Source of the DNA: Patescibacteria group bacterium
Lineage (GTDB): Bacteria; Patescibacteriota; Patescibacteriia; Veblenbacterales; UBA10138
NCBI GenBank assembly: GCA_041645215.1
Contig: JBAZQK010000003.1
Location: 45,723 to 109,722 of the forward strand
Direction of reading: 5' to 3'
DNA length: 64,000 nucleotides
Within the stretch, counting starts at the first letter, position 1, and each line of letters opens with the position of its first letter. Below, in pieces: positions 1,173-57,399 of the stretch. The notes beneath the pieces are model-generated. The model saw only the letters and a program-made list of their open reading frames with translations, had not been told where the DNA came from and ran no database searches. The translations under genes and the position numbers were made by a program.

Positions 1173-1429
1173 AAATAAATCAAAATGAAAATATCAAAAT
1201 GAAAAATGACAAAGCAAAATTATAAAAATTCCAAATCTTAAATCCTAATACCTTCCGCCAGCACGCCCCGCCGAATGGCGGGCAGGTTTATAGCCCGAGC
1301 GTATTTAAGACAGCGGCTTTGGCAGGCCCCGCTCAAGCTTGGGCAGGCGGGACTTGTACTTTTGATTTTTGACTTTTGAGCTTTGATTTTCCATATTGTA
1401 ATTTTGCATTTTGATTTTTCAATTTTACA

Positions 1430-3382
1430 TTATCTAACCACCACGCCCTTGCCCTGCGCCCCCAAATCATCGTCTAACTCGGTAGTAACAAATTTAGCGG
1501 TGGCAATTAAATCAGCGCCGGATACTGAATCACGAGCCGTGGCGGTGGTGGTTTTGGTCAGCACCAAAATTTTATCAGCATCGCTCTCCTCCGGCGTTAC
1601 CGCCAGCTCAAACCAAGCTTCGGGCTTGGTAAAAGTTATGCCCGCCCCGGCGGGCAAACGATTTAGCCGCCAACTAACCTCACGCGTGTTGGAATTATAA
1701 GTTACGGCTTGACCAGCCGAAACCGTCGTTTGCCCGGTCCAATTAACCCCCGCTGGCAAAGTGGCCGTTACTTCCATGTTTTCCAAATCATTAAGCGTAT
1801 TGCCCAACTGCCAGAATACGATGTAAGTAGTGGTTTGCCCAACCCGCGGCGGCAAAGGACCTGACCCCAGCTTAACCAACTGATCAGTATAATACCGGCC
1901 CTCAACCGCCAACGACATCAGCGAACTAAATTTGGTTTCTATTTGATTTGATTGCAGACTTATCGTTTGTAAATTGTTGTCAATCACCTGCTTAGCCTCG
2001 CCCGTCACTTGAGTCATAAAACTAACAGGTGATTTGGCTCCCCGCGGCAGACTAGTTACCGTATTAATTCGCCAAGTCAAAGTAACGCGCGATTTAGATT
2101 GAACGATTTTTAAAAATGGTACGGAGTCGCCCGACCAAGTAATCGTACCGGCGGTCTTATCCAACTGTCCGCCAAAATCGTCCCGCCAACTTGACCAATC
2201 TAAATAAACGGTTGACAACTGGACTTTAAGTTTAAAATCGCTGTAAGACAAATCGCCGTTATTAACAACGGCTAATTCGTATTTTATTTCCTGTCCGAGC
2301 GTCGCCTGACTTTTTAAACTGACATCATTAGCCGTCAGATTAAGACTTAATTGCGAACCTAATACCGCTACCTGCCAAACCTTTTCCTCTTGCACCGAAA
2401 ACACCTTATCGGTTCCGCCCCAAAAACCAATCGCCACACCGAGTGACTGGTCGCCAACCTGACTGGCTGAAGAAAATTTTCCTTTGAGTTCAAACTTGCC
2501 ATCGCCCTGCGGCTCAAGGTCTCTCAACCGCCAAACATTGTTTTGTCCACTTTCAGCCTCTAACGACGGCACTTCCAAATCAAAACCGCCGGGCAGATTA
2601 AGCCGCAACCGCAACCCGACTAACTTAGCCGTTGAACTATTATGATACTTAACCGCTAACGTAACCGGCTGATCAACCGCCACCTTAGCTAAGCCGGCCA
2701 AATCTAAATTAATGGCCGAGGCTACCAGCTTGGTGCTAAAACTTAAAGTTTTAGTAAATTGAGCTTTGATGTTGTTGGGCTCATAAACCACCAAAGCCGA
2801 AATTTTCTTATCGTCATTAAGGTCGCCAATCAGCTGACCGCGTATGGTTAATGCGCCAACTTGATTAGGACCAACGCCGGGAATAATAAAACGCGTTGTC
2901 TCCTGGTTGTCAGGCTGTAAACTGGCGTCCGCAAAAGTAAAACCGTCGGGATAACGTAAATTTATTTCAACCTGTTTTAAGCCAATCGCCTGATTATTGG
3001 CATAGGACAGGGTGTATTCCACCACCTGGCCAGACGGCAACTCGCTGGGCGCTGTTAATTTAAACTGCACGGCCTCTTCGCCAAACCTCGCCGGATTCCG
3101 CCCCAACCACAACCAACTGCCAATCGCGCCAATTATAAGAAAAACCAGTGCTGACATAATATAACCCCAACGACGGTGGCGGCGCGAACCGGCTATCAAT
3201 TTTGACAAATCAGCCACCGCCTGTTGGCGATAGATTTCATCCCATTTGGGTGTGGCGTTGGAATTAGTTAAATTATTAGATGACGACGGAGAATCGTCGG
3301 CATCATTGTAACTAATGGTAATATCATTAACTTGGCTTTTTTTCATACCCAGTATATCAACTTGGCTTAACCACCTCAGCAC
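1430..3382 (-). CDS. Large surface/cell-envelope protein with an N-terminal membrane anchor (about 640 aa)
   Basis: 650-aa ORF. The hydrophobic helix IMSALVFLIIGAIGSWLWL is followed by an extracytoplasmic region predicted to be beta-rich. The first 12 codons of the track ORF are encoded by the first unit of the upstream tandem repeat, so the real start is probably the internal ATG (MKKSQV) near 3346. Confidence 0.6.
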   Translation of the reverse strand: MLRWLSQVDILGMKKSQVNDITISYNDADDSPSSSNNLTNSNATPKWDEIYRQQAVADLSKLIAGSRRHRRWGYIMSALVFLIIGAIGSWLWLGRNPARFGEEAVQFKLTAPSELPSGQVVEYTLSYANNQAIGLKQVEINLRYPDGFTFADASLQPDNQETTRFIIPGVGPNQVGALTIRGQLIGDLNDDKKISALVVYEPNNIKAQFTKTLSFSTKLVASAINLDLAGLAKVAVDQPVTLAVKYHNSSTAKLVGLRLRLNLPGGFDLEVPSLEAESGQNNVWRLRDLEPQGDGKFELKGKFSSASQVGDQSLGVAIGFWGGTDKVFSVQEEKVWQVAVLGSQLSLNLTANDVSLKSQATLGQEIKYELAVVNNGDLSYSDFKLKVQLSTVYLDWSSWRDDFGGQLDKTAGTITWSGDSVPFLKIVQSKSRVTLTWRINTVTSLPRGAKSPVSFMTQVTGEAKQVIDNNLQTISLQSNQIETKFSSLMSLAVEGRYYTDQLVKLGSGPLPPRVGQTTTYIVFWQLGNTLNDLENMEVTATLPAGVNWTGQTTVSAGQAVTYNSNTREVSWRLNRLPAGAGITFTKPEAWFELAVTPEESDADKILVLTKTTTATARDSVSGADLIATAKFVTTELDDDLGAQGKGVVVR

Positions 3383-3998
3383 GAACGTGACTAGACAAGA
3401 ATAAATGATTAAATAATTTTAGATAAGACATAAAGTTATAATAGCTGGTGGTTAGGGCGAGTGCTAGCCAAGTTGTATTACTGGGCATACCCAGTATATC
3501 AACTTGGCTTAACCACCTCAGCACGAGCGTGACTAGACAAGAATAAATGATTAAATAATTTTAGATAAGACATAAAGTTATAATAGCTGGTGGTTAGGGC
3601 GAGTGCTAGCCAAGTTGTATTACTGGGCATACCCAGTATATCAACCCCGTAGAATCACGGCGGATACATCGATCAACCGTAATGTCCGGATTAATTGTAA
3701 GTAATTTGCGATTTTCATAAATATTGATTGTCCGCCGTAACTCTACGGGGTCAACTTGGCTTAACCACCTCAGCACGAGCGTGACTAGACAAGAATAAAT
3801 GATTAAATAATTTTAGATAAGACATAAAGTTATAATAGCTGGTGGTTAGGGCGAGCCCAGAACCAAGAGCTATATAGGAAGTACTGATATTATTGCTATC
3901 CATTATTGGTAAGTAATGTGTTCCCGTGGCGATGCGAGGGTACCGTGCTTGCTCTGGTGCTGGGCGAGTGCTAGCCAAGTTGTATTACTGGGCATACC
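3345..3998. repeat. Three tandem copies of a unit of about 135 bp (promoter/5' region of the surface-protein gene). The third copy carries two different insertions of about 105 bp.
   Basis: The unit is catacccagtatatcaacttggcttaaccacctcagcacga[a/g]cgtgactagacaag...ttgtattactgggc. The insertion at 3646-3750 has terminal inverted repeats ccccgtaga/tctacgggg and a tcaac target duplication. The insertion at 3856-3963 is flanked by the direct repeat gggcgag. Confidence 0.85.
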
Positions 3999-6746: not shown

Positions 6747-7078
6747 ATTTTAGAACAAAATATTTACCTGTCAGTCTAAAGCCCCCTCGTCATTCTGAAC
6801 ACATTCGCTGTGCTCAGTGTAAACTCCGTGAAGAATCCAGATTCTTCCCTCACCCCGCCTGGCGGCGGGGTTCCTTCAGAATGACAATCTAAAATGAATT
6901 TTAAGACTAGTAGAACTTACGCGTTTGAGCCAAGTTCGAGGCAAAACCGAGCATTTGAGCGAGCCGTAGTAAAACTACGGTGAACGAAAAGCGGAGGGTT
7001 TAACGAAGAAATTGGCCAAAGCCGCTTGAGGGGTCGTCCCTGCGCCCGCCCTGCAAGCGGCAAGCGCGTAAGTCCTAA

Positions 7079-10000
7079 CTAGGATATTTCCACACTCACT
7101 GCCTCGCCTTCTATTTCCAGCTTGTTATCATACTCCTCTTGGCTGATATTAATTTCCTTAGACAAAGTGGATTTGAGTAAATTATCACGGTGATTAAAAA
7201 GTATGGCGGCTATTTTTTCAGTAGCTCCAACTTTCAACATAATCCGATCGTTAATCGTTAACCCCCGCTGCTTGCGCAAGGCATTTACCTGCCGCGAAAA
7301 TTCGCGTATTAAACCGAGCGCTTTTAGCTCATCATCAATTTCTGTATTTAAAACTACCGACAATTCCCCTGCTTCCTCGCAAACTACTTCTAATACATTT
7401 ATTTCATCGGCCAAAATTGCCTTCATTTCCTCGGCCAAAATCAAACCCTTCACGGTAACCACCCGCAAAGCCTGACGAACTTTTATTTTAGCTGCCGCCC
7501 GCTGAGCTAAAACCGTTTCTACTACTTGTCTTAGTTTTGACATCTTAATCAAAAGTTCTGGATCGTCATTATCGGCATACAAAGATGGCCATTCTGCTAA
7601 ATGCACCGACTCTAATTCTCCTCCAACCCGACGATAAATATGCTCTGACAAAAAAGGTACAAAAGGAGACATTATTTTTGATAAATTAAGTAAAACATGT
7701 CGTAAGGTATTTAGGGCTTCCATTTTTCTATTCTCTTGTTTAAATCTATCGCGGCTGCGGCGCACATACCAAACCGATAAATCAGTAATAAACTCCTCTA
7801 TCTTCCGTCCCGCTTCTGTCACCTTATAGTTTTCTAGATATTCTGTTACTTCGTCCAATAATTTATACCACATTGCCAATATCCACCTATCTAATACATG
7901 AGTAACTTGCGGCACTTGCCGTGTACCGTCGCTCGCCTTTGGGCGAGCGACTGGTACACGGTACAATTCATAAAACATCACCACATTCATTAAAATCAAA
8001 AATGTTTTTTTTACCACGGCCTCAACATCTTTGGGGTCAAAATTCTTAGGTTCGCCCGGCTGGCTAGCCGTATAAAAATAAAACCGCAAAGCATCAGTCC
8101 CGTATTGATTGATAATTTCCCAGGGGTCAATAATATTGCCCTTGGATTTAGACATTTTTTGGCCATATTTGTCGTTTATATGCCCCAAACAAATAACATT
8201 CCGGTAAGGCGGAATCTCGCCGATGGCGCCGGCTTTTTTAAGCAAAGTCGCCACCGCCAGCAGAGTGTAAAACCAACCGCGGGTTTGATCTATGGCTTCA
8301 GCAATAAATTCAGCCGGATAATGGTCTGGCAATTGCTGGGCGCTACCCGCAGTCGCCGGATAACCCCACTGGGCAAACGGCATACTGCCACTGTCAAACC
8401 AACAATCAGCCACCTCCGGCACGCGCCGCATTTCCCCGCCACACTTACAAGCCAAAACAATCTCGTCAACATAAGGCCGGTGCGGATCAAAATTTTGACT
8501 TTTTCCGCCAGCACGCCCTGCCAAAGACGAGGCTCCGCCGAATGGCGGGCCGAGGGAGGCGGATCCGCCTTGGGCGGAGATTTTTGACTTTTGACTTTCG
8601 TTGGCTAAATCAGACAACTCCTGAAAACTGCCAACGCATATCTGATTGCTGCAGTCTCCACATATCCATATGGGTAATGGCGTACCCCAATAGCGCTCGC
8701 GCGAAATGGCCCAATCTTTTACCCCGTCCAGCCATTCGCCAAACCGACCTTGCTTAATATGCTCGGGATACCAATTGATTATCTCGTTAGCCGCTTTTAA
8801 ATCCTCCCGCAAAGCTGACATTTTTATAAACCACGATAGTTTGGCATAATACAGAAGCGGCGTATCGCAACGCCAACAATAAGGATAATCATGAGTGTAC
8901 ATTTCTTGCTTAAACAACAAACCGCGCTCTTTTAAATCCTCCACGATTCCTTGCTCCACTTCTTTATCCTTAACAAACTTACCAGCCCATTTGGCAACAT
9001 CTTTGGTAAAATAACCATTCTCGTCAACCGTATGAAACTTGGGCAAGCCGACTTGACCGCCTAAATTAAAATCGTCCTCGCCGTACATTACGGCCGTGTG
9101 TACCACGCCGGTGCCATCCATAGTGGTGACGAAATCCGCGGCATACACGCGGTGTGATTTTTCGTTCTGGAGCGGTTTGATGTCGAATAACGGTTCATAT
9201 TCTAAACCAACTAACTCACTACCTCTCAATAGCCGTATGTTTTTAAATAAAACATTACCTTTCCCCTTAAAATTAGTACTACCCCATGTCAAATCATCTT
9301 CGTGTGGGTGAGGACTATAACCTAAAGTACTCTCAAAAACATTCGTAAATGCGGAACGGGCCAATATAAATACTTCACCTTTTTGTATATCAGAAACATC
9401 TGACGTTTCAACCTCTAACATTAGGTAATCAATATCAGCACCAATTGCGAGCGCTACATTCCCCGGTAAAGTCCAAGGTGTAGTCGTCCAAGACAAAATA
9501 TATGTATTATTTTCAATTTTGACTTTTTCCGCCAGCACGCCCCGCCAAAGGCGAGGCTCCGCCAGGTGGCGGGCCGAGGGAGGCGGATCCGCCTTGGGCG
9601 GAGACTTTTGACTTTTGACTTTGAACTTAATATAAACTGACGGTTCAGTAATTTCTTTATACCCTTGGGCCACTTCGTGGCTGGATAGGGCCGTACCGCA
9701 ACGCGGACAATGCGGCACCACTTTATAATCTTGGTACAACATTCTTTGCCAGCCCTCACCCGGACATTCATCACTGACTCTAAATTCATTCTCTGGCTCC
9801 ATGACTGGCTGACTGTCTGACTGGCTAACCCACGTACGCCAGATTTGCTTAAAAATCCACCACAAACTTTCAATGTAATAAGGCTGATAAGTAATATAGG
9901 GCTTTTCCAAATCCAGCCAATAGCCAATGCGTTCGGTTAATTTTTCCCACTCATTTTGATATTTCCAGACGGCGGCCTTGCATTTACTATTAAACTCCTC

Positions 10001-10318
10001 CACCCCGTACTGTTCTATGTCTGACTTGCCTTTAAACTTCAACTCTTTCTCAACCTGCAGTTCCACGGGTAACCCTTGGGTATCCCAACCGGCTTTACGG
10101 TCAACCTTAAATCCCCGCATGGTTTTGTAACGCGGAATTAAATCCTTAAACGCCCGCGCTAGCACGTGATGCAAGCCCGGCTTGCCATTGGCTGTCGGCG
10201 GCCCTTCAAAAAAAACAAACTTGCCCTGTGGGGCCGGCTTGGCCAGGGTCTTGGCAAAAATTTTATGTTCTTTCCAAGAAGCTAGGATTTTGTCCTCCAG
10301 TTCAGAAAACTTTATCAT
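7079..10318 (-). CDS. ileS: Isoleucyl-tRNA synthetase carrying two in-frame repeat-element insertions
   Basis: Class I aaRS HIGH-region (PPTANGKPGLHHVLARAFKD), KMSKS motif (KMSKSKGN), the CP1 editing motif TTTPWTLPGN and a C-terminal Zn-binding region. Two segments of about 35 aa (near 8493-8598 and 9517-9623) are encoded by a dispersed GC-rich repeat. Confidence 0.95.
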   Translation of the reverse strand: MIKFSELEDKILASWKEHKIFAKTLAKPAPQGKFVFFEGPPTANGKPGLHHVLARAFKDLIPRYKTMRGFKVDRKAGWDTQGLPVELQVEKELKFKGKSDIEQYGVEEFNSKCKAAVWKYQNEWEKLTERIGYWLDLEKPYITYQPYYIESLWWIFKQIWRTWVSQSDSQPVMEPENEFRVSDECPGEGWQRMLYQDYKVVPHCPRCGTALSSHEVAQGYKEITEPSVYIKFKVKSQKSPPKADPPPSARHLAEPRLWRGVLAEKVKIENNTYILSWTTTPWTLPGNVALAIGADIDYLMLEVETSDVSDIQKGEVFILARSAFTNVFESTLGYSPHPHEDDLTWGSTNFKGKGNVLFKNIRLLRGSELVGLEYEPLFDIKPLQNEKSHRVYAADFVTTMDGTGVVHTAVMYGEDDFNLGGQVGLPKFHTVDENGYFTKDVAKWAGKFVKDKEVEQGIVEDLKERGLLFKQEMYTHDYPYCWRCDTPLLYYAKLSWFIKMSALREDLKAANEIINWYPEHIKQGRFGEWLDGVKDWAISRERYWGTPLPIWICGDCSNQICVGSFQELSDLANESQKSKISAQGGSASLGPPFGGASSLAGRAGGKSQNFDPHRPYVDEIVLACKCGGEMRRVPEVADCWFDSGSMPFAQWGYPATAGSAQQLPDHYPAEFIAEAIDQTRGWFYTLLAVATLLKKAGAIGEIPPYRNVICLGHINDKYGQKMSKSKGNIIDPWEIINQYGTDALRFYFYTASQPGEPKNFDPKDVEAVVKKTFLILMNVVMFYELYRVPVARPKASDGTRQVPQVTHVLDRWILAMWYKLLDEVTEYLENYKVTEAGRKIEEFITDLSVWYVRRSRDRFKQENRKMEALNTLRHVLLNLSKIMSPFVPFLSEHIYRRVGGELESVHLAEWPSLYADNDDPELLIKMSKLRQVVETVLAQRAAAKIKVRQALRVVTVKGLILAEEMKAILADEINVLEVVCEEAGELSVVLNTEIDDELKALGLIREFSRQVNALRKQRGLTINDRIMLKVGATEKIAAILFNHRDNLLKSTLSKEINISQEEYDNKLEIEGEAVSVEIS

Positions 10319-15173: not shown

Positions 15174-15358
15174 AACAATAAATAATCAATAAATTTATAA
15201 TTTTAGGACTTACGCGTTTGCCGTCATCCTGAAGCTGATGTCCATCGGCTGAAGGATCTCGGCTTATATCTAAGCGATTTTCGAATGAGATTCTTCTCCC
15301 GCCGCTGGCGGGATCAGAATGACACAAAAAGCCTGAATCGCGTAAGTCCTAAATTTAA
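15174..15358. repeat. MITE-like nested inverted-repeat element inserted between infC and rpmI
   Basis: Outer inverted repeats ttaggacttacgcgtttg ... cgcgtaagtcctaa enclose inner inverted repeats gtcatcctgaa ... tcagaatgac and a ccgccgctggcggg hairpin. The same motifs recur at 6770-7078, 19440-19515, 34819-34912, 53112-53334, 53950-54129 and 57311-57399. Confidence 0.7.
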
Positions 15359-16051: not shown

Positions 16052-16440
16052 TGGTGGAGGTGACGGGGGTTACACCCGTGTCTAGTTAATTAAACCTAAA
16101 TTTGGCTCCAGGCTCAGTGCCCGCTAATTACCGACGCGCCAATCAAGCGGCACAAAAGTTGGCGTGCGGGTTGTCCTATAATTACTCGTCGCTATAAATA
16201 GGACAGCTTAACAGCGCGAGACTCGATAAATGACGTTCCGTATAAGTTATCGAGTGTCACTTAAGGGAACGGCTCTGACCAATATTAGGCCAAGGCTGGG
16301 GCAAAGCTCAATCCCGCCAAGGCGGAACGAACCTTGCTAACAAATGTATTAGCATTTGTGTAGGTGCAGCTTTTTTACGAAGACTGCGGCTTCGACCTGC
16401 TAAACTTAAGTTAAAGAACTATCGAATTATAAACACCCCC
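16052..16440 (-). ncRNA. ssrA: tmRNA (SsrA)
   Basis: Located by eye next to smpB. The 5' end is GGGGGUG... followed by a UUCGAU motif. The 3' end reads GGGUGUAACCCCCGUCACCUCCACCA, a T-arm plus acceptor with an encoded CCA. The 7-bp acceptor stem GGGGGUG/CACCUCC includes a G3:U70 wobble, the alanine identity element. An internal ORF ends ...AGLSFAPALA-UAA and may be the tag. Length is about 389 nt. Confidence 0.7.
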
Positions 16441-16489: not shown

Positions 16490-16942
16490 TTACCCTTTGA
16501 TTCTTAAAGAACTTCTAATCTCGCGATTAAGTTCGCGTTTTTTTAAAGTCTCGCGCTTGTCATGTTTGGTTTTACCGCGCGCCAGACCGATTTCAACCTT
16601 AATTAACCTGTGCCTAGTATAAACAGAAAGTGGTACTAGTGTCAAGCCTTTTTCCTTAATTTTGCCGAATAAATGAGACAACTCACTAAATTTAAGCAAC
16701 AGCTTGCGGTCGCGAGCCGGGTCATAACTGGCCTGGGTTGTTTTGGCTGGTAAATAAGGCGCAATATTAACGCCAGTCAGCCACAGCTCGCCCATTTTAG
16801 GTATAACAAACGAGCCGTGCAGATTGATTCGCCCGCCCTTGGCCGACTTAACCTCCGCCCCAGTCAGCACTAAACCAGCCTCGAATTTCTCCAGGATAGC
16901 GTAATCGTGCAGGACACGCTTGTTATCTGCCAACCTACCCAT
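16490..16942 (-). CDS. smpB: SsrA-binding protein SmpB
   Basis: RVLHDYAILEKFEAGLVLTGAEVKS...GLTLVPLSVY...RGKTKHDKRE is canonical SmpB. Length is 150 aa. Confidence 0.95.
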   Translation of the reverse strand: MGRLADNKRVLHDYAILEKFEAGLVLTGAEVKSAKGGRINLHGSFVIPKMGELWLTGVNIAPYLPAKTTQASYDPARDRKLLLKFSELSHLFGKIKEKGLTLVPLSVYTRHRLIKVEIGLARGKTKHDKRETLKKRELNREIRSSLRIKG

Positions 16943-16958
16943 AAATAATTCCTACTTT

Positions 16959-16994
16959 CATCTGCTTCGCTGCTCGCGAGCAGCGAAGCAGATG
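16959..16994. terminator. Perfect 36-bp palindrome (stem-loop) just 3' of the 17008-17526 gene
   Basis: catctgcttcgctgctcgcgagcagcgaagcagatg. An almost identical copy lies on the other side of the same gene at 17588-17623. Confidence 0.5.
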
Positions 16995-17007
16995 AAATGC
17001 TAATTTA

Positions 17008-17526
17008 TTAATTTAAAATTAAACGACTTAAATCTTTATCCAACTTGCCTTTACGTTGCATAGTTTTTAAAACACTATACAGTTGTTTACGCTTTTTGCT
17101 ATCAAGCATTTTAATAATATCATCAAGTAATATTTCAGGCCAAAAATTCATCGGCGCGCGACGTTTCAAACTGGACATTAAACCATAAGTGTTAACTTTA
17201 TCTGACACAGGAGTATTGCGGCCCCGCTCAAACATAAGTCTAAATCCACTGCCCGCCTCCTCTAACCACAGATTAATTTTAGCTATTGTGCTGCTACTTA
17301 CTTTAACCTGCTTCATTATCTCACGATAACCCACTCCGGCTAATAATAGTTTGGCGACTTTTAGCCGCTTGGCCAACATGGTCAATTCAGCGCGGGTTAA
17401 AAGATCGCGAAAAACTTCAGCCGACTCGCTAAACCCGCGCATAGTTCCCAGTGAACGGAAAAAACCTAACAATAAAGCTTCCTCTTCATTTTTACCTAAA
17501 TTTTTATATTTGAATGTTCTAGCCAT
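17008..17526 (-). CDS. TrpR-like YerC/YecD-family DNA-binding protein with a C-terminal extension
   Basis: FRDLLTRAELTMLAKRLKVAKLLLAGVGYREIMKQVKVSSSTIAKIN matches the YerC/YecD (Trp-repressor-like) helix-turn-helix signature. The gene is flanked on both sides by the same perfect palindrome. Confidence 0.6.
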   Translation of the reverse strand: MARTFKYKNLGKNEEEALLLGFFRSLGTMRGFSESAEVFRDLLTRAELTMLAKRLKVAKLLLAGVGYREIMKQVKVSSSTIAKINLWLEEAGSGFRLMFERGRNTPVSDKVNTYGLMSSLKRRAPMNFWPEILLDDIIKMLDSKKRKQLYSVLKTMQRKGKLDKDLSRLILN

Positions 17527-17587
17527 AAATTCACTGATTAATACTATTAACTAGCCCTTCTATTATACCCCGCCCGCCCTTAATATT

Positions 17588-17623
17588 CAACTGCTTCGCT
17601 GCTCGCGAGCAGCGAAGCAGTTG
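17588..17623. promoter_or_regulatory. Second copy of the perfect palindrome, upstream of the 17008-17526 gene
   Basis: caactgcttcgctgctcgcgagcagcgaagcagttg. This could be an operator or a bidirectional terminator. Confidence 0.45.
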
Positions 17624-17662
17624 ATAAATAGAAATAGGATAAAAGGATAACTACTATTAATA

Positions 17663-34028: not shown

Positions 34029-34209
34029 AAATACAAATCAAAATGCAAATATCAAAAATCAAAATTACATTTACACTTTTCGTGCCCGAGGCAGATCCGC
34101 CTTGGGCGGAGATTTTTAAATTTTAAACTGTATTTATATTCTACATCATTTAACCCAAATAAAAAATCCGCCCGGCTGGATAGTGGGACCGACTTTGACT
34201 GCCAACTAT

Positions 34210-35713: not shown

Positions 35714-35957
35714 TTAAAGGTTATTAATAATACTTAATATTCTAGCACACTGCCGCCGTCAGCGCCAAAGTCATAAAGAGATGGTTTCAAAACCCTATTT
35801 CTGCTACAATCTCTGTTTTTTGACTGCGACTGCGTCAGATTTCCCAAAATGTCCTCATCGTAGCTACTGCTACGTTTCCGGGCATTTTGCTCATCTTCCT
35901 GGTCTCGTTTAAAAATCATAGCTTTCGCCACGAAAAGGGTTTTGAAACCATCTCTAA

Positions 35958-37998: not shown

Positions 37999-38388
37999 CT
38001 ATTTATCGTCCGGCGTCAGAATACTCTCCCGCTGTACTTCGGGAGGGACTTTTTCAGAATACCCTGCCGCCTCCGCCCGCCGGCGGACAGCGAGAGGACT
38101 TTCAGCAGCTGAAAAAATCGGCGGAACTTCTAATAAATTACCGGCTCGCCGGGGCGCTAATTTTATAATATCGCTGCCGCCGGGATAATCCGCCATTTTA
38201 TCAGCCCTTGGGCATAAAACAGTTGGCGCCGTGAATACGCTAACTGATAAATTCTTAAGTTCGGCTAATTTATCTAAATAATGCAAAACTTCGTCCAATT
38301 GAATGGTGAAGTTATCAACTTCGGATTCACTTAACTCCAGTCGAGCTAACTTAGCTAAATGAAGTATGTCGGCCTTAGATAAACTCAT
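37999..38388 (-). CDS. gatC: Glu-tRNA(Gln) amidotransferase subunit C with a C-terminal extension encoded by a repeat element
   Basis: The GatC core (ADILHLAKLARLELSESEVDNFTIQLDEVLHYLDKLAEL) is followed by about 35 extra residues. These overlap a GC-rich palindromic repeat (ccgccggcggacagcgag) at 38036-38105. Confidence 0.8.
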   Translation of the reverse strand: MSLSKADILHLAKLARLELSESEVDNFTIQLDEVLHYLDKLAELKNLSVSVFTAPTVLCPRADKMADYPGGSDIIKLAPRRAGNLLEVPPIFSAAESPLAVRRRAEAAGYSEKVPPEVQRESILTPDDK

Positions 38389-38735
38389 AAATTAAAGTAT
38401 ACAATAAACCCGCGACTACGCCAAAAGATTTAGAATAGAGAATTGCGAATCACGAATCACGAATAAAATCCTGAATAATTTATAATTTTAAATTTATAAT
38501 AATACTCTGTAGCCAATTAACAACTCAAAAGTCAAATATCAAAAGTAAAAACCGCAACGCAAAGCTTAAAACTTATAGGAACTTTTGCGTTTTAACTTGT
38601 CTCCCTTCGGGAGATCTACCGTAGGTACGATAGTTTTGCGTTTTGACCTTTAACTTTTGACTTAAAAACATTAGGATTTAAGATTTTACAAATTCATTAA
38701 ACTTTATAAAGAGATGGTTTCAAAGAATGATACTG

Positions 38736-40739
<2,004 letters not shown>

Positions 40740-41840
40740 CTAAGGACAAGTTTCGCTAATATTACCTTTGAGAATTGAACACTGCGAAAAAATCGTATAA
40801 TCAAAAACATCAGACGACGGGGCGAACTGCGGCACGGTAATAGACAAGGCCTGACGCGTATCAGCTTGCTGACCCGTAGTTGAAATTGTGATACGGGCGG
40901 GCAAAGCATACACACTGCCGTTACCATCAGTCTCGCTGTAAGCAGTTAACTGCAAATTACAAATACCGCCGTATAAAGCTTTTAACCGCAAACGGTAATT
41001 GACATAATTCGGCTGGCCCACGTTATTGATATTAATAATGACGGCTTGACCGGGACTGGCGGCAATTTGACTGTGATTAATATAACGCCGCTGAACGTCA
41101 AAATCCGACGCCGCTCCGCCCCACGATGACCAGGATAGTTCCAACCACTCCTGTCCTTGATTAACACAGGCGGTTGCGGTTGGATCCCAACTTATTTTTA
41201 ATGATTTTGCCTTTGGACTGTCGTCCAGTGAAGCGGCGGGGTCAAACAAATCAATTTGTTTAACTTCGTCCGGTTTTAAAGTAGTTATAAGAGTTGATTG
41301 GGTTTCCTGGCTGTCGCGCCACCACTGCCCTTGACTGCTAATCAAACTGACCGGGCTGGATGAGGAAACCGTCAACTGACTGCCCTTTAACCCTTCCTGT
41401 CGCCATAAATACAAACCCTGCTCCAAACCGCTTTCGGCGGCATAATAAGCCACCACTGCCCGATCGGCCGAAGTTGTAAGGCGCAACTGGCGCATGACCA
41501 AACTGCCGACTGTCAAACTGGTAACCAAAATCGTCGCCAAAGCCAACAACGCCAATAGCAATACCATCCCCTGATTATCACCCTTCGCCCCCAATACCCT
41601 GCGGTCTCCAGGCCGCAAAGGATGAATGGCGAGGATGATGGGGCTGTAGTTTTTCCGCCAAAGGCGAATCAGCCACCCTCGGCCTGCCATTCGGCGGAGC
41701 CTCGCCTTTGGCGGGGCGTGCTGGCTGAAGCGGGACGAGGGGAGTAGGTAAAAAAGGCTACGGGTGATGAATCCTAAAATAGAGGATACCCGGTGGTCTT
41801 GCCACCGGGAGAATTCATTTTTTTCTCTTGTATAAAACAT
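40740..41840 (-). CDS. PilX-like minor pilin/pilus-associated protein. The real start is probably the internal ATG (MVLLLALLAL) near 41570.
   Basis: A hydrophobic N-terminal helix is followed by a PilX_N-like motif (AVVAYYAAESGLEQGLY). The N-terminal 90 codons of the track ORF are read through a copy of the GC-rich dispersed repeat at 41610-41765. Confidence 0.55.
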   Translation of the reverse strand: MFYTREKNEFSRWQDHRVSSILGFITRSLFYLLPSSRFSQHAPPKARLRRMAGRGWLIRLWRKNYSPIILAIHPLRPGDRRVLGAKGDNQGMVLLLALLALATILVTSLTVGSLVMRQLRLTTSADRAVVAYYAAESGLEQGLYLWRQEGLKGSQLTVSSSSPVSLISSQGQWWRDSQETQSTLITTLKPDEVKQIDLFDPAASLDDSPKAKSLKISWDPTATACVNQGQEWLELSWSSWGGAASDFDVQRRYINHSQIAASPGQAVIININNVGQPNYVNYRLRLKALYGGICNLQLTAYSETDGNGSVYALPARITISTTGQQADTRQALSITVPQFAPSSDVFDYTIFSQCSILKGNISETCP

Positions 41841-44424: not shown

Positions 44425-44819
44425 AACTTTAGAATATCATTTTCAGGCGACTTGGCCAAGTTGCCGGCTGGGTTAGGATAAAACTCCACGATCTCATCCA
44501 GCCTTCGTCCGCGGCGGCGAACTACGGCGGATTTGGCCGGCGGTGGCGTCTTGCAAAACATTAATCTGACCCCCTTTTTTTATATTATACTTTTAAATTA
44601 AAGGTACCTGACCCTTTTTCAATTCGCTGTTAGTAGTTACGGGATTTATGTCCGGTGCCGCCATAGCGGCATCCCGCAAAATTAAAATTTTTTTTAATAG
44701 TAGGTGCGGTGACCGGACATAAATCCCTGAAGTGGCTATTTAGTTTTTACCTGACACCTTTTTCCCTCTGGGATAGAATGAATTAAAACATTAAGAAAAA
44801 CGGTCCTCGTGAGACTTAT

Positions 44820-45749
44820 TTATTCATTAATGCGTTCTAAAACATTAAAGCCGCTAAGAATAACATCGCAAATAAAATCTTCGAGTTGACTTTGGTCATC
44901 TTTAGTTTGAGCTTTATAAAGATAAGTATAATAAAGCTGTTTTTGCTGTTGATGAATAATCGCCGGCGCTAAATTAGCTTTCAAAAGCATAGCGTTCATA
45001 AGCAAACGTCCCACCCGACCATTCCCATCAGAGAATGGATGAATTTGTTCAAAGCGACTATGAACATTAGCTGAAATATTCACAATATCTTTTTTTGTTT
45101 TTTCTGCATCAAGAATAATTGACTTCATCAAATCTGGTATCCGTATATAATTAGCTGTTGGCAAGCTAACACCCACAATTCTAACTGCATGATTACGATA
45201 CATTCCCGCATCTCCACGAATTCCATTCATAAGAATACTATGCAATTTCAGTATTAAATTTTCGTTAATTTTCCCTTTTTTAGCTAGGTAATTAAATAAG
45301 TAATTTAGGGCGGTTTGATGATTTTTTGCTTCTAACTGTTCAACTAGACTTTTATTTGGTAGAGCTACATTTTCAAAAAGAACAGCAGCTGTATCTAGTT
45401 CAGTAAGGGTATTTCCTTCAATGCTATTGCTATGATAAGTAAGTTTTAAAATAAATTCATCGAGAATATCTTGATTATTTAAAATTTCATTAATAATACT
45501 TTTGTATTTAGATGATTTTTTCTTTAAAATCTGTTTTTTGGCTGTAAGCTTATCATCTGAAATGATTTTTTGCCCAGTAACCTCTAAAAATAAATCATTT
45601 ATAATTGATTCCTTTTTTTTATGAGGAACAGATTTTCCTGTCCACCAATTATTAAAGGCAACAAAAGAAACTCCAAACTTTTCTGCCAATTTAGTCTGAG
45701 TTAATCCAAGTCTTTTTTGAATAATTTTAAGTTTTTGCTGTGTATTCAT
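44820..45749 (-). CDS. Fic-family protein (class II, self-inhibited) with an N-terminal XRE-type HTH
   Basis: Fic motif HPFSDGNGRVGRLL, inhibitory-helix motif SNSIEGN upstream of it, and an N-terminal HTH (LGLTQTKLAEKFGVSFVAFNNW). Confidence 0.85.
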   Translation of the reverse strand: MNTQQKLKIIQKRLGLTQTKLAEKFGVSFVAFNNWWTGKSVPHKKKESIINDLFLEVTGQKIISDDKLTAKKQILKKKSSKYKSIINEILNNQDILDEFILKLTYHSNSIEGNTLTELDTAAVLFENVALPNKSLVEQLEAKNHQTALNYLFNYLAKKGKINENLILKLHSILMNGIRGDAGMYRNHAVRIVGVSLPTANYIRIPDLMKSIILDAEKTKKDIVNISANVHSRFEQIHPFSDGNGRVGRLLMNAMLLKANLAPAIIHQQQKQLYYTYLYKAQTKDDQSQLEDFICDVILSGFNVLERINE

Positions 45750-46030
45750 ATATAGATATTATCAAACTTTATAAAGTTAGTCAAAACAGTGAAAACTTTA
45801 TAAAGTTACAAAATTCAAGGACTTGCTTTAAGCTCTTTTAAGGCAAGACCTTTTTCCGACTTAAAAATATCGGATGTCCAAGCTACGGTTCTTGCGAGAT
45901 CCAACTAAAAGGCTCCTGACACCTTTTTCCTTTTTTCCTTGACATCTCTTTTTGTGCATATATTACATTTGCCGCTATAATCTGTTATAATCCACTATAT
46001 ACAGTATAGCGTTAATTTTTAATAAAACTT

Positions 46031-47095
46031 ATGGACGACATTTTCCGAAAATTTGATCATCGCATAAAAAATCCCGATCCGCATATCGTGACTCTTTTGG
46101 CTGAGATTGATGGTATTCGCGGCGAGTTCAAAGGGGGCTTAAGAATGACGCCTCAGGCCATTATTAACCTTAAGAGATCAACACTAATCACCTCTGCCGG
46201 TGCTTCGACTCGTATTGAGGGCGCAAAACTGACCGACGAGGAAGTCGAGAAGGTCATGCGCGGCCTTGCAGTCTCAAAGTTTGCTGATCGTGACTCGCAG
46301 GAAGTTCAGGGATATCTTGAAACGCTTCAGAATGTTTTTGATAGTTTCCAAACCTTGCCGCTTCGGGAGAGTGTTATCACTTCGCTTCATAATCAACTTC
46401 TTAAATACTCCCACAAAGACGATACGCATCGTGGTGGTTATAAAAAGAAAGAGAACACAGTTGGTGTACCGGGACCGGACGGCAAAGTGGCGCAAATCAT
46501 GTTCGAGACCACCCCGGCGTACCTTACGCCAAAGGAAATGCAGGAACTTGTTGAGTGGACTGATGATGCGCTCGAAAAAAACCGCTTTCATCATCTTCTA
46601 ATTATCGCAAATTTTATTGTAGAGTTTTTGAAAATTCACCCGTTTGAAGATGGTAATGGGCGTCTTTCGCGCGTCCTTTCAAATTTACTTTTACTGCGAT
46701 TTGGTTACCAGTTTGTACAGTACGTCTCGCATGAACAAATTATTGAGCGCCGCAAGGACGAATACTATATTGCTCTCCGCAAATCTCAAGAGACATTCAA
46801 GACTGATCACGATACCATCGCACCGTGGCTCAATTTCTTTCTTTCGGTAGTCAGAGAACAAGCGGCAAAGGCTCTTTCGTATCTAAAAGAAGAAAAAGTT
46901 GAGGATATGCTGTCTCCCAAGCAATACGAAGTATGGAAGTATGTTTTAAGTGTCGGAGAGGCCGCACCGGGTGAGATCGTAAAAGCAACCGGTATCGCAT
47001 TGGGTACAGTTCGTCAAGCGCTTAATAGTTTGGTTGAACTCGGAAAAGTGAAACGTATCGGGCGTGGCCGGAGTACACGGTACCTAAAAATATAA
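46031..47095 (+). CDS. Fic-family protein (class II) with a C-terminal winged-helix domain
   Basis: Fic motif HPFEDGNGRLSRVL, inhibitory motif STRIEGA, and a C-terminal wHTH-like region (PGEIVKATGIALGTVRQALNSLVELGKVKRIGRGRSTRY). Confidence 0.85.
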   Translation: MDDIFRKFDHRIKNPDPHIVTLLAEIDGIRGEFKGGLRMTPQAIINLKRSTLITSAGASTRIEGAKLTDEEVEKVMRGLAVSKFADRDSQEVQGYLETLQNVFDSFQTLPLRESVITSLHNQLLKYSHKDDTHRGGYKKKENTVGVPGPDGKVAQIMFETTPAYLTPKEMQELVEWTDDALEKNRFHHLLIIANFIVEFLKIHPFEDGNGRLSRVLSNLLLLRFGYQFVQYVSHEQIIERRKDEYYIALRKSQETFKTDHDTIAPWLNFFLSVVREQAAKALSYLKEEKVEDMLSPKQYEVWKYVLSVGEAAPGEIVKATGIALGTVRQALNSLVELGKVKRIGRGRSTRYLKI

Positions 47096-47357
47096 ATTAA
47101 TTTAGGAAATCGCTTAAAGAACGGTTCTTGCGTAATTCAATTAAAAGGTTCCTGATACCTTTTTCCTGTTCTAGGATAGAGTGAATTAAAACACTAAAAA
47201 AAATCTGCCTGTTGCGGGGAATAAAGAAAGGCTCCTGACCCCCATTTACCTCATTTACCCATTTCTGTCCCCATTTATTTCGTGAATGGAGAGTTATTTT
47301 TGTAGTTTTTCACGATTATGTTGACAAAACAGTGAAAAAAGAATATAATAGTGGTAT

Positions 47358-48233
47358 ATGACTAAAATACTTAATGTTTTCAATAAAATAAATTCTTTAC
47401 GTGAAAGATATTATAAAGCATCTACGGGAAAAGAGGCGCTTATTAAACTTATTGCTGAAACTGAAGTTGCCGAGCAAGTATATAACTCAAATGCTATAGA
47501 AAACAACACTCTTACTCTTGAAGAAACTGAAAAAATACTTCTTCAAATTGATCTTGATAGATATATCACTGAGCGAGAAATATTTGAAACAAAAAATTTA
47601 GCAAGAGTTGTATCATATATAGATAAAAAAGCCAAAGAACAAGAACTTACTCTTGATGTTATTTTATCGCTTCATAAAATGTTGATTTCAAATATACGCA
47701 ATGATGTTGCTGGAAGATTCAGAAAAGATAATGAATATGTTCGAGTAGCTAATTACATTGCACCAGCTCCAAAAGAAGTTCTAACAAGACTTGAAAAAAT
47801 GCTGACAGAATACAATGCTACAAGCCATGAAAATATTATTAAACGTATTGCGCGCTTGCACCTTACTTTTGAACACATCCATCCATTTGTTGATGGCAAC
47901 GGTCGTATCGGAAGAGTAATAAATAATTACCTGCTTATAAGAGAAGGATTTGTTCCAATAAATATAAAATTTATTGATAGAAAAAAATATTATGAAGCTT
48001 TCAAAGAATTTGATAAAAAAAACATAACTACTGTTATGGAAGAAATGGTAGGGAAAGCGCTTACTAACAGTTATTATAAAAGATTAGCATACTTGGAAGA
48101 CAAAAAAATTATTCTGCTTGTTGAGTATGCAAAAAGTAACAAGCTTTCACATTCAAATCTTATAAATAAAGCTAATCGACAGACTATTGAGGCTTTTTTA
48201 GAAAAGAACGTTTGGAAAATTGGTGTTGATTAA
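47358..48233 (+). CDS. Fic-family protein (class II, third paralog)
   Basis: Fic motif HPFVDGNGRIGRVI and inhibitory motif SNAIENN. Confidence 0.85.
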   Translation: MTKILNVFNKINSLRERYYKASTGKEALIKLIAETEVAEQVYNSNAIENNTLTLEETEKILLQIDLDRYITEREIFETKNLARVVSYIDKKAKEQELTLDVILSLHKMLISNIRNDVAGRFRKDNEYVRVANYIAPAPKEVLTRLEKMLTEYNATSHENIIKRIARLHLTFEHIHPFVDGNGRIGRVINNYLLIREGFVPINIKFIDRKKYYEAFKEFDKKNITTVMEEMVGKALTNSYYKRLAYLEDKKIILLVEYAKSNKLSHSNLINKANRQTIEAFLEKNVWKIGVD

Positions 48234-48366
48234 AAAATGAAGCCTCCACGGGCTCATCCAGCCTTCGTCCTCCTTGGGAGGAGGGTTGGGGGTTGTATTA
48301 TTTTTAGTGAATTAAAACATTAAGAAAAAGTTGCCTGTCGCGAGGAGTGTATATGTTATCACTAAT

Positions 48367-49039: not shown

Positions 49040-49083
49040 AAAAACTAGTAATAGTCCCTACAGAGCAGGACTTAGATCACATA

Positions 49084-52951: not shown

Positions 52952-53334
52952 ATAATCAACAAGTTAATGATTAATAACTAAAGTCTATATCAAAGAGTAG
53001 CATAATTACCTTAATAAATTCAAGCACCTTGACCCGCCAACGGCGGTGGCTTGTCCCGCTTCAGCCAGCACGCCCCGCCGATTCGGCGGGGTATTTTGGC
53101 GAAAGGTGATAAACGCGTAAGTCCTATATAAGCAAAGAACAAGCCCTTTTTAGGAGGACTTGTTCTCTAAATTAAATCAGTATAGGACCTACGCACTTCG
53201 TCATCCTGAACTCGATTCAGGATCTCTATCAAGGACTAATGTTAGCCAAGGTTAGATTCTGATCCGCCAGTGGCGGACAGAATGACGGCTGCAAAAATAC
53301 CACATTCTGTGTCAAGTGCGTAAATCCTACAGTA

Positions 53335-55341: not shown

Positions 55342-56418
55342 TTAAGAGCGCTGGAGTAAAGCTTTAAACAATTCCAAATCGTGCGCGTACTTGATTGCTA
55401 TTTCCTGCATAATTTCACCGGTTTGGGTAAGTTGGGCCAAGGCAAAATCAAACGGCATCATACCCTCGGCGCGCGATGTCTGCAATAAATTATTAAGGCG
55501 GTAATATTTACCTTCTTGAATAATTGATTTTACCGGCGGGGTGTTAAGCAATAATTCCGGCACCAATACCCGGCCGCCGCCGACGCGCGGAATTAATTGC
55601 TGAAAAGATATAGCCAACAAAGCGTCGGCCAGCCTGGTCCGCGCACTGTCCTGATCATCCGGTTTATATTGCCCAAGCAAACGTTCGATAGTTTTAACTG
55701 ACGAATCTGACTCGGTTACCGCCAAAACTAACTTGCCGCCTAAGGCCAAATCAATCGCCTGATTGATTATCTGGCCGCTCGGCAAACGCGACAACGCTAT
55801 CACATCGCAATCCTCATTCGGCAAGTCGCTAACCGCCTCTTCCCAACTATTAACGTCCTGGCCCACTTCTCTTTGATCTAACAGGCTTTTATCAGCTAAT
55901 AAAGCGTATTCAATCGGTTCTTCAATGGTTACAATGTGACGCGCCTGGCGATGGTTAATTACTGACAGCAGACTGGCCACCGTCGTGCTCCGACCGGAAC
56001 CGAACGGCCCGGTTATCAAAATTAAACCATGCTGACGGCTGGTTAATTTGGCCAACGCCGGCGGCAAACCTAAATCAACTGTTGTTTTAACCGAACTGCC
56101 GATAAAACGCATAGTTAATTCCGGTAAACCATGCTGATAAAAAACCGACACCCGCAGGCGTAAACGGTTGGCAAAATTATAACCAATGGTTATTTGTTTT
56201 TGCTGTTCCAAAATTTGACGTTGCTGGGGTGTCAGTAAATAAGCCAGTATCGCCTCTAAAAAATCAGCGGAAACAGTCGCCTCGTCGCTTTCAACCGACA
56301 ACTCGCCGTCGCGGCGCGCCACCGGCTGGGAACCGGCGCGTAAATATAAATCTGACACCGCTTGCGCAGCCAAATTAGTCAGTATTTTTTGAAAAATCGC
56401 AACTTCGGTAGCTGACAT
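55342..56418 (-). CDS. PilT-like secretion ATPase paralog with degenerate Walker motifs
   Basis: PilT/GspE-family core. Walker A reads GPFGSGRST (Arg instead of Lys). The Asp-box/Walker B region reads DCDVIALSRL, lacking the catalytic Glu of the canonical DPDVILVGEMRD. Confidence 0.7.
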   Translation of the reverse strand: MSATEVAIFQKILTNLAAQAVSDLYLRAGSQPVARRDGELSVESDEATVSADFLEAILAYLLTPQQRQILEQQKQITIGYNFANRLRLRVSVFYQHGLPELTMRFIGSSVKTTVDLGLPPALAKLTSRQHGLILITGPFGSGRSTTVASLLSVINHRQARHIVTIEEPIEYALLADKSLLDQREVGQDVNSWEEAVSDLPNEDCDVIALSRLPSGQIINQAIDLALGGKLVLAVTESDSSVKTIERLLGQYKPDDQDSARTRLADALLAISFQQLIPRVGGGRVLVPELLLNTPPVKSIIQEGKYYRLNNLLQTSRAEGMMPFDFALAQLTQTGEIMQEIAIKYAHDLELFKALLQRS

Positions 56419-56455
56419 AATAGGAAATTTAAAATGTAAATATCAAAGATTAAAA

Positions 56456-56848
56456 TTATTTTTTATTCTTGAGAGTCAATATACTGGAAGCTAAAATATT
56501 AGCTAATTCTATTAATTCAGCCAAAAGACGGTTAACTTCTTGTTTATTGCCTTTATTAGTGTCTCTTAGAAGTGTTAGCCAGACTTTTGATTCATTAGCT
56601 GATTTTAATGAATAAGTGAAAAAATTAATAAAATCCTTCTTGGAGCTAGCCGAGTTGGCTTCTATATAATTGGCTAATATGCTAGTACCGCTCCGTAATA
56701 ACTGTTTACCAATCACTTCACTCACAACTCCTTTAGGCAATGAATCAATGAATTTAATTAAACTTAGAGTAAATTTATAAAGCCGTTGTTTAAATTCATT
56801 TTTAAATTTTAATTTGTCATTTTCCATTTTGATTTTTACATTTTGCAT
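56456..56848 (-). CDS. Four-helix-bundle protein (23S rRNA intervening-sequence protein family). Probable start at the internal MENDKL.
   Basis: LLRSGTSILANYIEANSASSKKDFINFFTYSLKSANESKVWLTLL matches the four-helix-bundle/IVS-protein signature. Confidence 0.65.
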   Translation of the reverse strand: MQNVKIKMENDKLKFKNEFKQRLYKFTLSLIKFIDSLPKGVVSEVIGKQLLRSGTSILANYIEANSASSKKDFINFFTYSLKSANESKVWLTLLRDTNKGNKQEVNRLLAELIELANILASSILTLKNKK

Positions 56849-56935
56849 TAATTATTATTGCCCATAAATAATGTTTAAATGTTCTTTTGTTCCAGTGCTT
56901 AAGTGATAAAGTGTTTAAGTGTTTAAGTGTTCCTT

Positions 56936-57310: not shown

Positions 57311-57399
57311 ATAATATTGACTTTCAGGACCAGTCAGGATCAGAATGACGGAACGAAAAAGTCTTTATTTAGTGGCAAAGGCGTAAGTCCTAATAATAT

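Follow-up and report, generated by a model that had tools for sequence, protein, structure and literature searches.

We analyzed a 64-kb stretch of DNA (the window; part of the 121-kb contig JBAZQK010000003.1) from the metagenome-assembled genome (MAG) of an uncultured member of the Patescibacteria, or Candidate Phyla Radiation (CPR), and conclude that its spacers probably hold two nested layers of small, structure-forming DNA that is selfish or semi-domesticated. The first layer consists of AT-rich arms, arrays of AAAANNN heptamers, which form the conserved inverted termini of a ~450-nt cassette with a PF05635 gene (23S rRNA intervening-sequence protein, IVP). The second consists of 15-nt GC-rich hairpin units, TCCGCC-NNN-GGCGGA, which occur as 15, 30 or 75 nt; two copies lie in frame within ileS.

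A first-pass annotation of the window had described a single dispersed composite element, a GC-rich core with AT-rich arms of its own. Every copy that it listed was found in place, and the modules recur far above chance when counted against shuffled sequence. The core 16-mer GCCAGCACGCCCCGCC, with up to three mismatches allowed, has five matches against 0.41 expected (1257, 8507, 9531, 41710 on the minus strand, and 53064), and the 22-mer GGCGGATCCGCCTTGGGCGGAG from the 3' part of the core has three against 0.00; an arm 20-mer has six against 0.06, and the double heptamer TTTTGACTTTTGAC 18 against 1.17. Repeat finding yielded an additional arm-bearing copy, at 38516-38664, that the annotation had missed. 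Dispersed repeats with consistent module boundaries were thus correctly recognized; the single composite element must be replaced by layers, because arms and cores occur independently of each other. In relatives, which are fragments or contigs given here as L-numbered loci, arms without a core are seen in L041 upstream of lgt, in L045 at 1173-1432 and in L002 at ileS site B, and arms also surround a protein gene in the IVP cassette. Cores that lack arms occupy 41654-41740 and 53050-53100 and also border tRNA genes in L007, L008 and L016. Coordinates of the modules are collected in Table 1.

GC Hairpin Units Within ileS and in Spacers

The ileS ORF (7079..10318, minus strand; 1079 aa) stays open through two inserts that are 94% identical over 108 nt, in agreement with the copies first reported within this gene. 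On the A-rich strand both read, in order, AAAGTCAAAAGTCAAAA[A/G]TC, TCCGCC-CAA-GGCGGA, TCCGCC-[48 nt]-GGCGGA and AAAAGTCAAAAT; the insert at site B, TCCGCCCAAGGCGGA followed by TCCGCC-[48 nt]-GGCGGA, is translated as SAQGGSASLGPPFGGASSLAGRAGG, and the IleRS protein is predicted to contain SPPKADPPPSARHLAEPR and SAQGGSASLGPPFGGASS. The distance between the two copies, 1024 nt, is not divisible by 3, so that they are read in different frames. They have 13-20 nt of identical heptamer flank, and their six differences are T/C and A/G changes and one changed loop. Both inserts fall, by protein alignment, in segments of variable length among orthologs, for which solved IleRS structures offer no aligned counterpart (in the comparison with 8c8w, query residues 238-268 and 573-608). 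The core is open in all six frames; the arms are open in the A-rich orientation alone, and ileS has them in that orientation. The GC units are apparently tolerated in frame in variable IleRS loops because their sizes are multiples of 3 and they are stop-free.

Site B takes four states among relatives: 0, 15, 30 and, in the window, 75 nt. In L002, a 98%-identical strain, exactly 75 nt are missing, with intact flanks and no duplicated base; L043 (IleRS 76% identical) has one 15-nt unit, TCCGCCTCTGGTGGG, and L003 (IleRS 71% identical) has two units, 30 nt. The site A insert is present in the window and L002 and absent from all other aligned orthologs. A target-site duplication, which the first-pass annotation had proposed to look for, is absent at the only cleanly resolved insertion, that at site B (...AAAAATC / AAAAGTC... 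junction). The empty and filled alleles have equal numbers of heptamers, so that the change is not a deletion between direct repeats. In-frame palindromic insertions in an essential aminoacyl-tRNA synthetase are, as these states show, tolerated by a reduced CPR genome. The repeats might instead be assembly artefacts, joined chimerically where sequence complexity is low; the source contig is metagenome-assembled, and repeats are classic misassembly points. We regard this explanation as highly improbable, because the same architecture turns up in assemblies and samples independent of one another (ENA ERZ27249422 and ERZ27247322, JGI 3300028028, and NCBI MAGs), synteny is intact on both sides, and the ileS frame is kept through both inserts.

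IleRS contains a third lineage-specific insertion (window 9745-9847, residues ~158-192, TWVSQSDSQPVMEPENEFRVSDECPGEGWQR), which the 98%-identical strain also has and the other orthologs all lack; it has no aligned counterpart in solved IleRS structures, and its DNA does not obviously belong to the repeat families described here.

The 75-nt form is composed of two units, with a 45-nt module, AGCACGCCCYGCC...GGCGGGCCGAGGGA, nested in the loop of the second. The units lie at a fixed heptamer junction, AAAA[A/G]TC^AAAAGT, and show no target-site duplication. At six of seven distinct loci (the lgt site common to the window and L042 being counted once) TCCGCCCAAGGCGGA is preceded by AAAA[A/G]TC or AAATATC, and without exception a second hairpin comes after it, with the compensatory stem variants TCCGCC/GGCGGA, CCCGCC/GGCGGG and TCAGCC/GGCTGA. 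Seven full cores were aligned to a proposed structure in which an outer stem is combined with two inner hairpins and one 3' hairpin; of the stem cells, 95% were paired, compared with 31-47% when the partners were slid, and three pairs had changed on both sides; the stems are maintained.

The nested 45-nt module also occurs by itself. It lacks arms at each of the core-only sites named above, those in L007 and L008 belonging to a Kerfeldbacteria MAG, as well as in L013, which like L016 is a metagenome contig; in L017 it is accompanied by arms. The copy near 41610-41765 does have the opposite orientation first ascribed to it, the TTCAGCCAGCACG... orientation lying on the minus strand there, and its outer stem is the compensatory TCAGCC/GGCTGA. 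Both orientations of the core relative to genes are seen, with the core reversed in L017. At the position of 41630-41745, L041 has no spacer.

That copy had also been said to supply about 90 N-terminal codons to the ORF of a PilX-like gene. The longest ORF (366 aa) does cross the 41654-41740 copy; translation of this part is unlikely. The gene as called at NCBI has 292 aa and starts at residue 75 of the longest ORF, and the 285-aa ortholog in L041 begins just 3 nt downstream of the preceding gene, no spacer separating the two; the extension is therefore a probable artefact of ORF calling, and the additional codons are most likely not translated. Repeat modules can thus lead gene callers to extend or invent ORFs: depending on the pipeline, this one gene has 366, 316 or 292 aa.

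A scan of 185,579 species genomes for the core 22-mer returned one Kerfeldbacteria MAG and chance matches in GC-rich Alphaproteobacteria, and a metagenome scan added four true relatives; outside this lineage, the 22-mer was seen in no more than a few Kerfeldbacteria-like contigs. In that Kerfeldbacteria MAG (JACRFN01; L007 7430-7560 and L008 300-520) the GC core stands right after a tRNA 5' fragment (GGACGCTTAGCTCAG) in tRNA clusters, with more tRNA-like fragments downstream, as if a tRNA gene had been interrupted by a number of small insertions or a duplicate had decayed. Rfam at gathering thresholds found only the tmRNA and tRNA-Asp in the window, with no rRNA and no family for the repeats; a permissive Rfam search with one core copy gave only chance-level matches, and promoter and terminator scans gave no consistent signal.

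AT-Rich Arms and the IVP Cassette

Arms near 56400-56470 and 56810-56860 had been listed as occurring alone; in fact they flank the IVP ORF of an intact cassette. The two arms (40 nt, 75% complementary) enclose a gene that NCBI calls as 123 aa, from the second ATG at 56827. Six distinct CPR cassettes with common arms were found (in the window, L027, L029 and L033, and two in L028). Their 5' arm, aatgYaaaatgYaaaaatcaaaATGGAAAATGAC, extends into the first ~13 IVP codons, and their 3' arm, aattgtaattttgatttttgatatttacattttRaattt, ends 3-8 nt ahead of the following gene's ATG. In all fetched contigs the IVP genes lie between cistrons and in the direction of their neighbors: in a secD/secF gap, between successive type IV secretion system (T4SS) genes, between pilin genes, and in the response-regulator/pilT-like gap of the window. 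One T4SS cluster holds four IVP genes. IVP homologs 75-90% identical are found among thousands of CPR proteins, including those of Moraniibacteriota, Colwellbacteria and Parcubacteria MAGs, whereas IleRS is just 50-60% identical to even its closest named relatives. The arms belong to a cassette system that spans the Patescibacteria and is much older than the GC cores.

The L027 and L028 contigs (ENA ERZ27249422 k141_321126, from the sample of the window) carry a T4SS-like cluster (PrgI, TraC-like, VirB4-like, pilins) with an IVP gene or fragment in almost every intergenic gap, in two IVP subfamilies with a common 3' arm. A heptamer run of CACTTAA/TTAAGTG (ggaacacttaaacacttaaacactttatcacttaagcactggaac) stands just upstream of the IVP 5' arm at 56876-56935 in the window, and is found also at 2400-2460 in L027 and 4440-4470 in L044; because it recurs upstream of another IVP cassette, the cassette may reach further 5' than the arm. 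A scan of viral contigs for the IVP 5' arm gave no matches.

Three elements in the window have arms and no IVP gene. At 1173-1432, the inner arm includes ATGGAAAATCAAAGC, a remnant of the IVP start, and tblastn with IVP residues 1-34 and 2-15 matched IVP-start-like codons at both ends of the element. Upstream of lgt, the arms enclose a hairpin pair, TCCGCCCAAGGCGGA followed by TCTGCCTCGGGCACG, that is present in the window and in the sister strain L042. In L041, a syntenic relative of ~70% identity, the arms are there without the pair, the break being tttaaaaatc/aaagtg; by our count the 3' arm matches at 43 of 44 nt, compared with only ~69% identity in coding DNA. The third element, at 38516-38664, is also present in L042. 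An additional AT-rich palindromic module (CCAAATCTTAAATCCTAAT / ATTAGGATTTAAGATTT) stands beside arms at 1228-1252 and 38665-38690 in the window and at 8000-8100 in L041, where it constitutes the ligA-gatC spacer.

Folding joins the 5' arm to the 3' arm in each case examined, with z scores of -4.0 for 1173-1432 (a stem of ~66 bp), -2.6 for the IVP cassette and -3.7 for 38516-38664. The duplexes extend over 33-66 bp, their free energies lying between -21 and -37 kcal/mol, and as terminal inverted repeats the arms measure 36-57 nt and are 72-83% complementary (repeats I3, I8, I10 and I11). No Shine-Dalgarno sequence precedes the start codons downstream of the 3' arms, which consistently end 11-14 nt ahead of them; the organism has one elsewhere, for example GGAGGTG before a pilin gene.

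These properties raise the alternative that the repeats are host regulatory structures and not mobile DNA, acting as hairpins for RNA processing or stability, as leaders that lack a Shine-Dalgarno sequence, or as terminators, and that they are alike through common function. The nearly invariant lgt 3' arm, the fixed distance to the ATG in 10 loci and the long stems formed by the arms all agree with it, as does a terminator-like score at 34083-34110, where GGCGGA is followed by GATTTTT. That site, however, is on the plus strand and all neighboring genes are on the minus strand, so that the terminator reading is antisense to local genes (no terminator-like sites were found at 38200-38900), and cores are found in both orientations. 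GC units also lie inside the ileS coding sequence in two frames, and they are gained, lost or replaced between strains that are 98-99.6% identical. As an account of both layers this alternative is unlikely; its fit is better for the arms than for the GC units, and domestication of the first layer would agree with it.

Polymorphism Between Sister Strains

Four sister-strain contigs overlap ~35 kb of the window, with flanking DNA 97-99.6% identical, and polymorphism between close strains, a check suggested with the first-pass annotation, was found at three sites: ileS site B, 1173-1432 and 53030-53100. In L045, a 99.6%-identical strain, 9 nt stand in place of 169 nt of the 1173-1432 element (inner arms and core), and 11 differences occur in the 60-nt 3' arm next to them (~82% identical); the flanking genes are at least 99% identical and the outer ends are the same. 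With break points in the arm ends, the difference is the replacement of a cassette rather than a simple insertion. In L044 the 53030-53100 spacer is wholly replaced by unrelated sequence with a different hairpin pair. The elements at 34029-34135, 38516-38664 and 41630-41745 and the IVP cassette are common to the sister strains. The modules are the main source of the differences between 98-99.6%-identical strains, which makes them useful as strain markers and break points of assemblies.

The replacement at 1173-1432, with its break points inside conserved arm ends, bears on a further alternative, namely that there is no dedicated mobility, and that gene conversion of the RecA or template-switch type among heptamer arrays that already existed, along with replication errors caused by hairpins, would alone account for the spread and change of the copies. 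The 13-20 nt of identical heptamer flank around the ileS copies point the same way, and no transposase was found in the window or the fetched loci. On the other hand, cores without heptamer flanks exist at 41654-41740, at 53050-53100, in the tRNA spacers of L007, L008 and L016, and in L044; the two site B alleles are equal in heptamers, and the junction is orientation-specific at six of the seven distinct loci. We consider gene conversion alone a doubtful explanation, and continue to favor two layers of selfish or semi-domesticated DNA.

Most other large indels between the strains belong to two unrelated repeat families. One is bounded by TTAGGACTTACGCG ... CGCGTAAGTCCTAA and has GTCATYCTGA...TCAGRATGAC hairpins around small CCGCC hairpins. 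A 218-nt copy of it stands directly before the ileS ATG in L002 and ~375 nt lie between ligA and gatC in L042, both being absent from the window; the window copy at 53934-54116 is absent from L044. The other is a 185-nt element at 35771-35955 with 54-nt inverted termini (AGAGATGGTTTCAAAAC...; repeat I4), which is absent from the 98.7%-identical strain L042 and has a partial copy of its terminus at 38710; it probably represents a third family, resembling MITEs (miniature transposable elements with inverted repeats).

Comparison with Known Systems

Full-text literature searches returned no account of such elements in Patescibacteria, and they are apparently undescribed in this group; they resemble several known kinds. 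Rickettsia palindromic elements (RPEs) are likewise small palindromes that occur in spacers and in frame in housekeeping genes with the ORF intact, landing in segments of variable length among orthologs. The ileS inserts behave in the same way: the 1079-aa IleRS is intact, and the inserts are absent from orthologs and, at site B, from the 98%-identical strain. RPEs are roughly 100-150 nt long, in contrast to the 15-, 30- or 75-nt units here, and belong to an unrelated lineage, presumably with unrelated sequence as well; the ileS copies moreover occupy two frames, and insertion takes place at a defined junction in AT-rich heptamer arrays. The finding provides a parallel to RPEs in an unrelated group with reduced genomes.

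The GC units also resemble repetitive extragenic palindromic sequences (REP, with BIME and REPIN), which are linked to REP-associated tyrosine transposases (RAYTs), and elements derived from IS200/IS605, in being GC-rich imperfect hairpins that come in pairs, without target duplication, with seamless presence or absence, and inserted in one orientation beside a fixed short sequence. Pairs of TCCGCC-NNN-GGCGGA units fit the short paired palindromes of REP, and AAAA[A/G]TC^TCCGCCCAAGGCGGA, at the six of seven distinct loci, fits seamless insertion 3' of a fixed target as in IS200/IS605. REP sequences are extragenic, whereas two copies here are within the ileS ORF; the units are also shorter and nested in each other's loops, and no RAYT or TnpA gene was seen in the window. 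GTAG is the hallmark of the REP 5' end. Only the hairpins at 41654-41740 and in L044 follow a CTGTAG, most copies being preceded by AAAA[A/G]TC.

The closest counterpart of the first layer is the intervening sequence (IVS) of 23S rRNA, as in Leptospira and Coxiella. In Coxiella the IVS measures 428-444 nt and carries an S23p ORF, and RNase III cuts its 28-bp terminal stem (PMC4990558), and IVP ORFs are also found within insertions in CPR rRNA genes (PMC11270868). Like the cassettes described here, IVSs have ~430-450 nt, a PF05635 ORF, complementary termini that form a long stem, and ORF-less versions; in the window the ORF scores E 5.6e-20 and the elements fold at z -2.6 to -4.0. IVSs reside in helix 9, 25 or 45 of 23S rRNA, whereas these cassettes lie between protein genes of operons; their arms are AT-rich heptamer arrays conserved across CPR lineages, and the 3' arm adjoins the next start codon. 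Judging by the link of the arms with the IVP gene, a broader cassette family may have rRNA intervening sequences as one of its habitats. If IVS-type cassettes in mRNA operons are confirmed, they would be the first IVS-type elements described outside rRNA and would give a genomic handle on the role of the long-unexplained IVP/S23p protein.

MITEs such as Correia, ERIC and Nezha are short, noncoding, bounded by inverted repeats, dispersed and variable among strains, and have longer ORF-bearing relatives with the same termini, all of which is true here as well. The ORF between the termini is in this case IVP and not a known transposase, PF05635 being the sole ORF type found between such termini; no scanned window ORF has a transposase domain, and there is no target-site duplication at ileS site B. 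An intrinsic terminator, with a sense-strand GC hairpin and U tract, is likewise a poor description, given the plus-strand position of 34083-34110. Because each lacks at least one defining feature in these elements, none of the MITE, REP and IVS classes fits them fully.

Diversity-generating retroelements (DGRs) have been reported from Patescibacteria, and PF05635 is presumably related to the DGR accessory protein Avd, so that the repeats might be DGR template and variable repeats with IVP as an Avd relative. We rejected this scarcely credible idea: there is no reverse transcriptase in the window, the ileS mismatches are not adenine-specific, and the targets are housekeeping genes and spacers.

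Proposed Mechanism

We propose that in the first layer the imperfect AT-rich inverted arms enclose a variable cargo, which may be the gene of the four-helix-bundle IVP, GC hairpins or nothing. The arms would pair in the transcript into an AU-rich stem of 33-66 bp and so present a substrate to a double-strand RNase, as in rRNA intervening sequences, while the 3' arm would serve as the leader of the downstream gene; cargo could be swapped between cassettes by recombination through the conserved arm ends. In the second layer, a GC unit would enter heptamer arrays at one junction and in one orientation without target duplication, and the insert could then grow by addition of a second unit and by nesting of the 45-nt two-hairpin module in the loop of that unit. 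Hairpins would most likely direct the movement, in a seamless single-strand process like that of REP/RAYT or IS200/IS605 elements, with short-homology gene conversion between heptamer arrays as a close second.

A more specific version is possible, and we advance it tentatively: IVP cassettes would be CPR-wide mobile IVS-like elements residing in the gaps of mRNA operons as well as in rRNA, with arms that combine the roles of recombination ends, RNase-III-type processing stem and leader lacking a Shine-Dalgarno sequence, so that the downstream gene stays expressed, and the 15-nt hairpins would be a second-order parasite that targets the arm heptamers and has reached essential genes such as ileS via arm-like codons.

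Several results weigh against these proposals. No transposase, RAYT, Y1 or reverse transcriptase was found among 40 window ORFs scanned against Pfam, nor any Y1 (HUH) gene in the window or the few related contigs fetched, and a 15-nt unit is, to our knowledge, smaller than any known transposable unit. The cassette replacement at 1173-1432 favors recombination over transposition, and the very high conservation of the lgt 3' arm suggests a host function rather than purely selfish DNA. Since the core 22-mer is found so rarely, the core is restricted to this lineage and probably not abundant, and its copy number may be low. The G-U pairs of the arm duplexes, which number 27 in the sense strand and 21 in the antisense strand overall, do not separate selection on RNA from selection on DNA, the sense-strand lean being limited to the gene-less elements 1173-1432 and 38516-38664. 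The compensatory changes come from only seven related sequences, a small sample, and the stop freedom of the core in six frames was rejected as evidence of selection, 10% of composition-matched shuffles being stop-free as well. Movement of the elements and the function of IVP are now open to comparative genomics and metatranscriptomics.

Table 1. Repeat modules and cassettes in the window (positions in the window unless a relative is named; parts are given in minus-strand order where the element lies on that strand)
Feature	Coordinates	Strand	Repeat label	Remarks
Intact IVP cassette	56408..56875	-		Between response-regulator gene and pilT-like gene, type IV pilus operon
IVP cassette, 5' arm	~56799-56875	-	I10	Overlaps first ~13 codons of the ORF
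IVP ORF	56456..56848	-		Pfam PF05635 23S_rRNA_IVP, E 5.6e-20
IVP cassette, 3' arm	56419-56463	-	I10	Ends right before ATG of pilT-like gene (56418)
Gene-less cassette	1173..1432	-	I3	82% complementary to IVP cassette arm
Outer 5' arm	1432-1400	-
Inner A-rich arm	1399-1354	-
GC core	1352-1253	-
AT module	1252-1228	-
3' arm	1230-1173	-		Adjoins ATG at 1172
Gene-less cassette upstream of lgt	34029..34135	-
A-rich 5' arm	34135-34111	-
30-nt hairpin pair	34110-34081	-
3' arm	34075-34029	-		Adjoins lgt ATG at 34028
Arm-bounded element	38516..38664	-	D5, D6, D9, I8	Between ligA and gatC; different, non-family hairpin core
ileS site B	8491..8598	-		A-rich heptamer flanks 8579-8598 and 8491-8503; 75-nt GC insert 8504-8578
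ileS site A	9515..9622	-		Architecture as site B; core 9528-9602, read as SPPKADPPPSARHLAEPRLWRGVLAE
GC core without AT arms	41630..41745	-	I1, I2	Between two pilus-related genes; 88-89% complementary to ileS cores
Short core variant	53030..53100	+		Hairpin CCGCCAACGGCGG, then CTTGTCCCGCTTCAGCCAGCACGCCCCGCCGATTCGGCGGGG; fold z -3.3
Second repeat family	6790-7078, 15196-15355, 53113-53330, 53934-54116, 57374-57408			Also L002 9797-10000 and L042 4347-4761

Gene Content and Other Repeats of the Window

Nearly all genes of the window are on the minus strand, and they include type IV pilus genes, ileS, argS, ligA, gatCA and lgt. The closest named relatives of IleRS and LigA are in Patescibacteria, Kerfeldbacteria and Komeilibacteria MAGs.

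Further repeats lie outside the two layers. A 142-nt repeat, tandem or dispersed, is present in three copies (99% and 81% identical; repeats D1, D7 and I9) at 3344-3879, at and upstream of the 5' end of a 650-aa surface-protein-like ORF (1430..3382); the copies contain the palindrome TACTGGGCATACCCAGTA. The region 44767-49805 holds three Fic-domain genes (44820..45749, 46031..47095 and 47358..48233), each with a repeated AGTGAATTAAAACAYTAAGAAAAA box and CTCCACNNNCTCATCCAGCCTTCGTCC boxes (repeats D4, D8, D13 and D18). Near-perfect 39-nt palindromes (TCATCTGCTTCGCTGCTCGCGAGCAGCGAAGCAGATGA; 95%; repeats I6 and I13), at 16941-17012 and 17586-17624, stand on either side of a Trp-repressor-like gene (17008..17526), which adjoins smpB and the tmRNA gene at 16052-16440.

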